Program-made: the position numbers and the translations under genes | Notes under the pieces: generated by a model | Told to the model about the DNA's origin: nothing | Database searches by the model: none | The model's input: only the letters and a program-made list of their open reading frames with translations | IMG/VR virus record: IMGVR_UViG_2687453623_000005 | DNA: 39,782 nucleotides | DNA from: a virus | Lineage: Duplodnaviria > Heunggongvirae > Uroviricota > Caudoviricetes | Direction: 5' to 3' (one strand) | Shown: in pieces, positions 871 to 1,061 of the stretch | How positions within the stretch are numbered: position 1 is the first letter of the stretch | Layout of the letters: every line of letters begins with the position of its first letter

Positions 871-1061
871 ATACTTCTCAAACTCCTGAGCCTTTGATTT
901 CAGGGCAAAGATTTTTCGAATCCGCTTTCCTTCCGCCCCTGCGGTCTGACATCGACCTGATAACGTCCGTCTTTGAGTTGCTTAATCGACATGATTAGCC
1001 CCTCCAACGGATAAATTAACTAAACACTCCTTGCGATATGTAATTCGCTCAATGTGTAGAG

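Follow-up and report, generated by a model that had tools for sequence, protein, structure and literature searches.

The stretch of DNA analysed here, hereafter the window (39,782 nucleotides; IMG/VR record IMGVR_UViG_2687453623_000005), is prophage Phi1 of Escherichia coli ST131; this P2-family (Peduoviridae) element is a P88-like Xuanwuvirus. Its integrase gene, int, is split into two reading frames by the loss of one G from a run of five (G5 to G4). With a rough probability of 0.55, this G4 run is a genuine, heritable but rare slippage allele that grounds an otherwise intact P88-like prophage. The loss of one base from a G run is the kind of change made by replication slippage; the lesion is an ordinary one, in a known gene of a known prophage.

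The int gene of the window is the int gene of strain EC958 (encoding WP_000023739.1, 330 amino acids [aa]) minus one G. Translation from the ATG at position 992 on the minus strand, which is preceded by a GGAGG Shine-Dalgarno sequence, gives MSIKQLKDGRYQVDVRPQG, followed by the out-of-frame residues RKESGFEKSLP and a TGA at 902-900. EC958 and JJ1886 both encode the intact 330-aa Int. Their gene occupies the same chromosomal site (the serS terminator, beside dmsA), shares the neighbours C and cox and is identical to the window gene at 992 of 993 nucleotides (nt); the remaining difference, G4 for G5 at codons 19-20, splits the open reading frame (ORF) into 30 and 289 codons. Alignment with the two strains places the missing base in the + strand sequence CCGCCCC[C]TGCGG, and the addition of one G at 936-939 regenerates the EC958 gene base for base. 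An initial annotation, made from the letters of the window, had described a 30-codon fragment and a 289-codon body in another frame, and both the sequence and the list of ORFs bear this out. It had placed the deletion near 927..930, but the alignment moves the loss to the G run at 936-939. A repair at 927-930 would join the frames too and would yield GR(N/K)GKRIR, which resembles P2 (RGRDGKRIR in P2_AC1) but is not encoded in the Phi1 lineage. The restoration of one base does join the two frames, as had been proposed; the peptide that it restores is PQGAEGKRIR (compare PQGADGKRIR in Peduovirus P24A7b) and not GRNGKRIR.

The 289-codon body has the conserved domains PF00589 (Phage_integrase, catalytic; E-value: 1.3e-18) and PF24624 (Int_N, core-binding; E-value: 8e-28), the latter at residues 16-115 (57-156 of the intact protein). 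Its translation includes the catalytic motifs ARWSE, HVMRHTFATH and LGH...YAHF. The 30-aa 5' piece has zero matches to Pfam models. When repaired, Int shows 49.1% identity to P2_AC1 and 56.2% identity to P24A7b in tblastn, over 97-98% of its length. Phi1 Int has the three-part layout of these P2 and other Peduoviridae integrases (N-terminal arm-binding, core-binding and catalytic domains), the conserved N-terminal motif M.IK.L.DGRY.VD.RP.G..GKRIR and the gene order int-C-cox, with C and cox adjoining int in the window. The match to P2 Int that had been reported thus holds at the level of the family (approximately 49% identity) but not for P2 itself. Unlike P2, Phi1 is P88-like, with a DNA invertase, a divergent tail block and another attachment site, and its local peptide is GAEGKRIR where the P2 type has GR(N/D)GKRIR. 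The N-terminal arm-binding domain of the window Int is out of frame with the body, as the frame breaks after codon 19 and stops at 900-902. The gene can therefore be classified as a disrupted member of the P2-family integrases (a pseudogene or truncated allele) in which the coding sequence of the arm domain is present but not contiguous.

The whole window is collinear with positions 948556-988444 of the EC958 chromosome and extends from the stop codon of int as far as the start codon of serS, with the prophage inserted at the serS terminator between serS and dmsA. The two sequences are 99.9% identical in two collinear blocks, with one mismatch and 22 gap openings. For the int region, identity reaches 99.9% with 280 complete E. 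coli genomes, nearly all of them ST131, and in the matches listed 1100 bases of the query pair with 1101 bases of the record each time. The name Phi1 is that of Forde et al. 2014 (PMC4134206), according to whom the EC958 prophages are prevalent in nearly all strains of ST131 clade C. An 8-kb block comprising the tail, invertase and D-ogr genes is collinear in one piece with phages P88 and P884B11 (93-96% identity), both of genus Xuanwuvirus, family Peduoviridae. The gene order of Phi1 in the window is that of P88, a free-living and viable phage.

Two Logan assemblies, which are built straight from SRA raw runs, support the reading of G4 as a real allele. SRR7724749 contributes a 22.7-kb contig, of which 14.4 kb is alignable; the int deletion is its sole difference from EC958, and 74 other runs of at least 5 nt are intact. 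SRR30896141 contributes a 7.1-kb contig with the same sole difference and 44 other intact runs of at least 5 nt. General homopolymer damage would not spare runs of A7-A8, and so the allele is very probably real in both of these samples. The deletion is not private to one assembly, since it recurs in these two read sets with no other differences. Because it lies in unique sequence and is found independently in two otherwise error-free read-set assemblies, the int deletion is probably real, and we infer that it is real in this particular record as well.

The unique sequence of the window is otherwise clean. Relative to both EC958 and JJ1886, its private differences are the int deletion, the shortening of a G6 run to G5 in gpX, and a cluster of changes that all fall within the invertible tail-fibre segment (27348-30016). 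Outside this segment there are no substitutions relative to the two strains, only the two single-base indels. All 168 A/T runs of at least 5 nt (16 of them at least 7 nt) and 34 G/C runs of at least 5 nt match EC958 and JJ1886 there; put another way, 202 other runs of this length are unaltered except for the gpX run, whose G5 form is a common allele. The full-length A8 run at 2725 shows that the window is distinct from the 454 draft of EC958.

The principal alternative is that the strain has G5 and an intact int, and that a base-caller or assembler under-called the homopolymer by one base. We give this explanation somewhat less than an even chance. It was our first reading as a pure artefact, on the strength of one mismatch against 22 gap openings in the EC958 alignment, and it was weakened by the recurrence of G4 in independent clean assemblies. 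A number of observations weigh against a real allele. The change lies in a G/C homopolymer and shortens it, and a single-base loss from such a run is exactly the product of indel-prone sequencing. The record also contains errors of this type: dozens of run-shortening deletions at 28406-29780 (approximately 45 deleted bases in the invertible segment) make indel-prone reads evident. Single-base homopolymer indels are the main discrepancy between platforms documented for EC958 (Forde et al. 2014, PMC4134206), although the int G run is absent from the discrepancies listed there. No complete RefSeq E. coli genome has an exact match to the 76-mer around the G4 run; the region is found in 296 of these genomes and, among the matches listed, always spans 77 nt. 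IMG/VR holds 16 wild-type contigs against 0 G4 contigs, and no G4 allele was found among the JGI metagenome contigs scanned. A collection of 15 billion proteins has wild-type Int on at least 1000 contigs, as against 17 contigs with the 30-aa G4 fragment. The source record seems to be absent from both the RefSeq complete genomes and the protein collection, as if it had failed quality control. The two Logan runs, of unverified sequencing platform, are not linked to the source strain of the window.

The 17 contigs with the 30-aa fragment also require caution. Twelve of them are multi-megabase whole-genome shotgun contigs (GCA_0532915xx-16xx and GCA_0396151xx-2xx) that show 12-19 deletions but only 0-1 mismatches per 6 kb relative to EC958, and dmsA, cox and C are fragmented in them as well. 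These are deletion-biased long-read assemblies, which drop the int run together with approximately 50% of other G/C5 runs and 94-100% of A/T runs of at least 7 nt. Within a clonal series of such assemblies, other G/C5 runs are lost in 0 to 3 of 4 assemblies (mean 0.5), whereas the int G run is lost in 8 of the 8 members retrieved (the accession series seems to have nine). Loss in all eight would be unlikely at an error rate of 0.5 per assembly, but the count is only supportive because the carriers were retrieved for having the deletion (ascertainment bias).

Three observations speak against a miscall in the window. Two clean read sets, each assembled independently, have this very deletion and no other difference. 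The unique sequence of the window appears free of length-dependent homopolymer errors, and its A/T runs of 7-8 nt, which are the first to fail in bad assemblies, are intact. Finally, dense errors occur in the record only within the invertible segment; mixed orientations account for them there and imply no poor accuracy elsewhere. The lesion, its exact site, its rarity and its presence in independent clean assemblies are all direct observations.

The invertible segment (2.7 kb) comprises the variable 3' end of H, tfa, tfa' and H', and it holds all of the other private frameshifts of the window. The frameshifts that had been reported in tfa, tfa' and H' are all present: single bases are lost at 28406 (tfa) and 29115 (tfa'), and H' is disrupted many times at 29165-29780, where approximately 45 bases are deleted, approximately 75 nt is lost and short patches resemble the H paralogue. 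No match above approximately 94% to this garbled stretch exists among the complete genomes, and the tfa product of the window is absent from the protein collection. The H' patch was considered as a real alternative allele or an import from another prophage; this was rejected, as no genome matches it and its best match is to the H paralogue (84.6%). Forde et al. 2014 (PMC4134206) found that the same 2.8-kb segment is flipped in approximately 50% of EC958 reads, that both orientations coexist in culture and that the flipped segment gave "2 substitutions/20 indels" between assemblies. That indel cluster in EC958 Phi1 corresponds to the cluster at 27348-30016 in the window. Because the garbled segment matches no record and mixed orientations give clusters of indels, the tail-fibre frameshifts are consensus or assembly artefacts of a population of mixed orientation and have no bearing on prophage decay. 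The same segment differs in JJ1886 (positions 12747-13284 of the extract L003), where tfa' has 10 extra bases relative to EC958 and is marked as frameshifted in the RefSeq annotation; this is another sign that the segment is error-prone in assemblies.

A broader reading would take the lesions in int, gpX, tfa, tfa' and H' as real mutations of a defective element. Several frames are indeed broken in one 33-kb prophage, and related prophages truly decay (through the 26-kb deletion and the insertion in int described below). This reading is nevertheless very improbable. A decaying element would not be expected to have zero substitutions and two single-base indels outside the invertible segment relative to EC958 and JJ1886, and mutation does not leave a pattern of approximately 45 deleted bases with paralogue-chimeric patches in 600 nt beside 37 kb of near-perfect identity. 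No other genome matches the garbled region, and the genes follow the order seen in viable phage P88. The initial annotation had offered either a decaying prophage or indel errors; the second option applies to the tail fibres, while the int deletion is probably real and the prophage as a whole is not decaying.

A further possibility is that the G run is a programmed -1 ribosomal or transcriptional slippage site that provides a low, regulated amount of full-length Int. On sequence grounds, exactly the wild-type frame and the wild-type peptide would be regained by a -1 slip on CAG GGG C. Nothing suggests, however, that such a slip is used to make wild-type Int: the relatives have one continuous G5 ORF, both on at least 1000 contigs of the protein collection and in the 16 contigs from IMG/VR and the complete genomes among the matches listed, and there is neither a conserved slippery heptamer nor a downstream structure. 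A run of four G is too short for efficient slippage. Recoding can be set aside as the least credible explanation of all.

If the deletion is a real slippage allele, its consequences would depend on the domain that is lost. The core-binding domain of P2-like integrases binds the core of the attachment (att) sites and the N-terminal domain binds the flanking arm sites; point mutations within that N-terminal domain inactivate P2 Int (PMC3448106). These sites appear to be intact in Phi1. One copy of the 20-bp att core lies in the window, and the second is found between int and dmsA, outside the window and 84 nt past its position 1. Each end of the prophage has a pair of ATGGAC repeats, and these are putative arm-type sites by their likeness to the P2-type arm consensus tgTGGaCa (PMC3448106). 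The window has no exact copy of the P2 arm consensus, TGTGGACA; its arm-type repeats read ATGGAC(AC). The coordinates of these and the other features are collected in the table below.

The proposed chain of events begins with slippage from G5 to G4, after which translation from ATG 992 would end after 30 codons, 19 of them encoding authentic residues. The only larger product possible would arise by re-initiation at GTG 870, which has a Shine-Dalgarno-like AGGAG 12 nt upstream, and would be an Int without residues 1-41 (most of the arm-binding domain). Lambda Int without its N-domain (the C65 fragment) retains core binding and cleavage but loses arm-dependent integrative and excisive recombination. 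By analogy, this is the phenotype expected for the 289-aa Phi1 product, if it is made, although lambda Int is another member of the family and the truncation in Phi1 arises by frameshift. Re-initiated Int would keep the core-binding and catalytic domains and could still bind and cut the core sites, but without the arm domain the arm-dependent excisive complex with Cox would presumably not be assembled. Failure of excision is expected because P2-family integrases need the N-terminal domain for the arm sites of attL and attR. We infer that the prophage would be unable to excise or re-integrate and would be fixed in the chromosome, while otherwise competent (att cores, arm repeats, C and cox are intact).

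Coordinates of the features discussed in the text (window positions)
Feature	Position	Strand	Remarks
int gene of Phi1 (P2-family tyrosine integrase), two frames	1..992	-	992 nt, as against 993 nt in relatives
5' fragment ORF, 30 codons	900..992	-	First 19 residues authentic Int, then 11 out of frame, TGA
Int body ORF, 289 codons	1..870	-	GTG 870 to stop 3-1; frame differs from that of the 5' fragment; residues 1-41 lost
G4 run (C4 on + strand)	936..939	-	Site of single-base deletion; G5 in relatives; int codons 19-20
Putative arm-type Int-binding sites (P arm of attL): ATGGAC twice, 11 nt apart	8..24	+	Within int 3' end
Putative arm-type sites beside attR: ATGGAC twice, 11 nt apart	38384..38400	+	Same spacing as the pair at 8..24
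att core copy AAAGCGCCTGCGGGCGCTTT, serS terminator hairpin	38448..38467	-	20-bp direct repeat that flanks the prophage in EC958
Repressor C gene (helix-turn-helix)	1062..1403	-	Directly upstream of int; intact; EC958 WP_001368591.1; zero differences
cox (excision directionality/switch protein)	1508..2029	+	Intact; zero differences relative to EC958 and JJ1886
G5 run, end of gpX (G6 in EC958)	19482..19486	+	84-aa X, as against 66 aa; apart from the int lesion
Invertible tail-fibre segment (variable 3' end of H, tfa, tfa', H')	27348..30016		Approximately 105 nt shorter than in EC958
26-bp invertase crossover sites	27348-27373 and 29991-30016		

The 5' end of int is disrupted in related prophages as well, and other public contigs have come to the same 289-aa ORF of the Int body through different events. 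Two gut-metagenome scaffolds in ENA, here termed L014 (approximately 9885-9915) and L021 (approximately 45-62), have the junction GAGTTCTCGTAAACC-GA-CGTTATCAGG. At this junction the left half-site of the tail-fibre crossover, TTCTCGTAAACC, and the central GA are fused to int nucleotide 25 (CGTTATCAGG...), where the original int sequence reads ...CAAAGACG-GA-CGTTATCAGG. The deletion takes in approximately 26 kb of prophage between the constant part of H and the int 5' end and leaves a Phi1-like remnant; both copies keep the wild-type G5 run. The junction lies precisely on the shared GA core, which suggests that the prophage's own serine invertase recombined with a pseudo-site inside int. Another contig (L020, positions 1-135; GCA_033440145.1, JANIRG010000031.1) has int interrupted at approximately nucleotide 106 by the end of an insertion sequence (IS), with a transposase C-terminus of ...RPHEYNGGLPPNESENRYWKKL*. 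This IS insertion is a third independent route to the 289-aa body ORF. Because the IS insertion and the invertase-mediated deletion struck independently, loss of the int 5' end is tolerated and recurrent in related prophages.

Taken together with the G4 allele, these events allow a wider and more tentative proposal, which we regard as possible but doubtful: that G4 is real and marks a circulating (or repeatedly studied) sub-lineage of ST131 with a locked Phi1, and that the int 5' end in P88-like prophages is a recurrent grounding target. It would be reached by slippage in the G run, by IS insertion or by an invertase pseudo-crossover at int codons 5-12, which removes 26 kb so that a tail-module remnant stays behind.

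The int 5' coding sequence also includes AAAGACGGACGTTAT (960-974, minus strand), which matches 14 of the 15 bases of AAAGATGGACGTTAT (38380-38394, + strand). The latter comprises the first arm-type repeat and the spacer beside attR. Two such matches were found, as against 0.01 expected by chance, and AAAGACGGACGTTAT shares bases with the apparent invertase pseudo-site of L014. This sequence could be an Int-binding site within int, or a coincidence.

Several differences elsewhere in the window were considered and set aside. The shortening of the gpX run was examined as a second private error and rejected, as the exact 84-aa protein is found on 289 contigs and belongs to a whole cluster of 84-aa variants. 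The tail of this 84-aa form overlaps the start of the holin gene (19494), and only 4 of 1043 complete genomes match the gpX 76-mer of the window exactly; either slippage recurs at the gpX run as a hotspot, or the run is repeatedly miscalled. The tape-measure gene has an insertion/deletion pair at 31928/31931 (positions 11408-11412 of the EC958 extract L001; GTA-CGCAACC as against GTAACGC-ACC). It was rejected as an error of the window, which agrees here with JJ1886 and scaffold L014, EC958 alone being different. This compensating pair changes two codons and is probably EC958-specific or a residual error in the EC958 reference. An "inverted" FI-FII-E-T-U block and a truncated gpD were considered as signs of decay and rejected, as the order is collinear with P88 and P884B11 and a full-length D ORF is found at 36310-37551. 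Finally, ON470599.1 (vB_EcoM-569R5) and ON470623.1 (vB_EcoM-705R2) were considered as intact, virion-forming relatives. Although they are named Escherichia phages, they were rejected as mis-delimited prophage predictions: they include approximately 11.7 kb of host DNA (ycaO, focA, pflB, pflA, dmsABC) and lack the tail half of the prophage.

Phi1 has other cargo. Two RNAs score above the Rfam gathering threshold in the early region: the isrK Hfq-binding small RNA (5154-5228, + strand; 65 bits) and the C4 antisense RNA (5264-5351, + strand; 83 bits). They are adjacent, with a gene that encodes a "Derepression" Pfam domain (PF25738) beside them, and the region resembles a P1/P4-type antisense immunity module in a P2-family prophage. 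At approximately 8980-10260 (positions 33185-34463 of the EC958 extract L001), a ParM/StbA-type actin-like segregation gene and a plasmid-stability partner adjoin replication gene A; these are unusual cargo for an integrated P2-family phage. A toxin gene of the Hok/Gef family (approximately 38044-38184) lies within the boundary of the prophage, between ogr and the core of attR, and adjoins two strong terminator-like hairpins.

Clusters of frameshifts in invertase-flipped tail-fibre segments are a reproducible artefact of mixed orientation and should not be taken as decay. If the int deletion were likewise an artefact, it would be a routine matter of annotation and quality control. If it is real, one lineage of pandemic ST131 carries a Phi1 that would be unable to excise. 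The significance of this would be modest, but it would bear on studies of prophage mobility and genome stability, and the G4 run could be used as a lineage marker.
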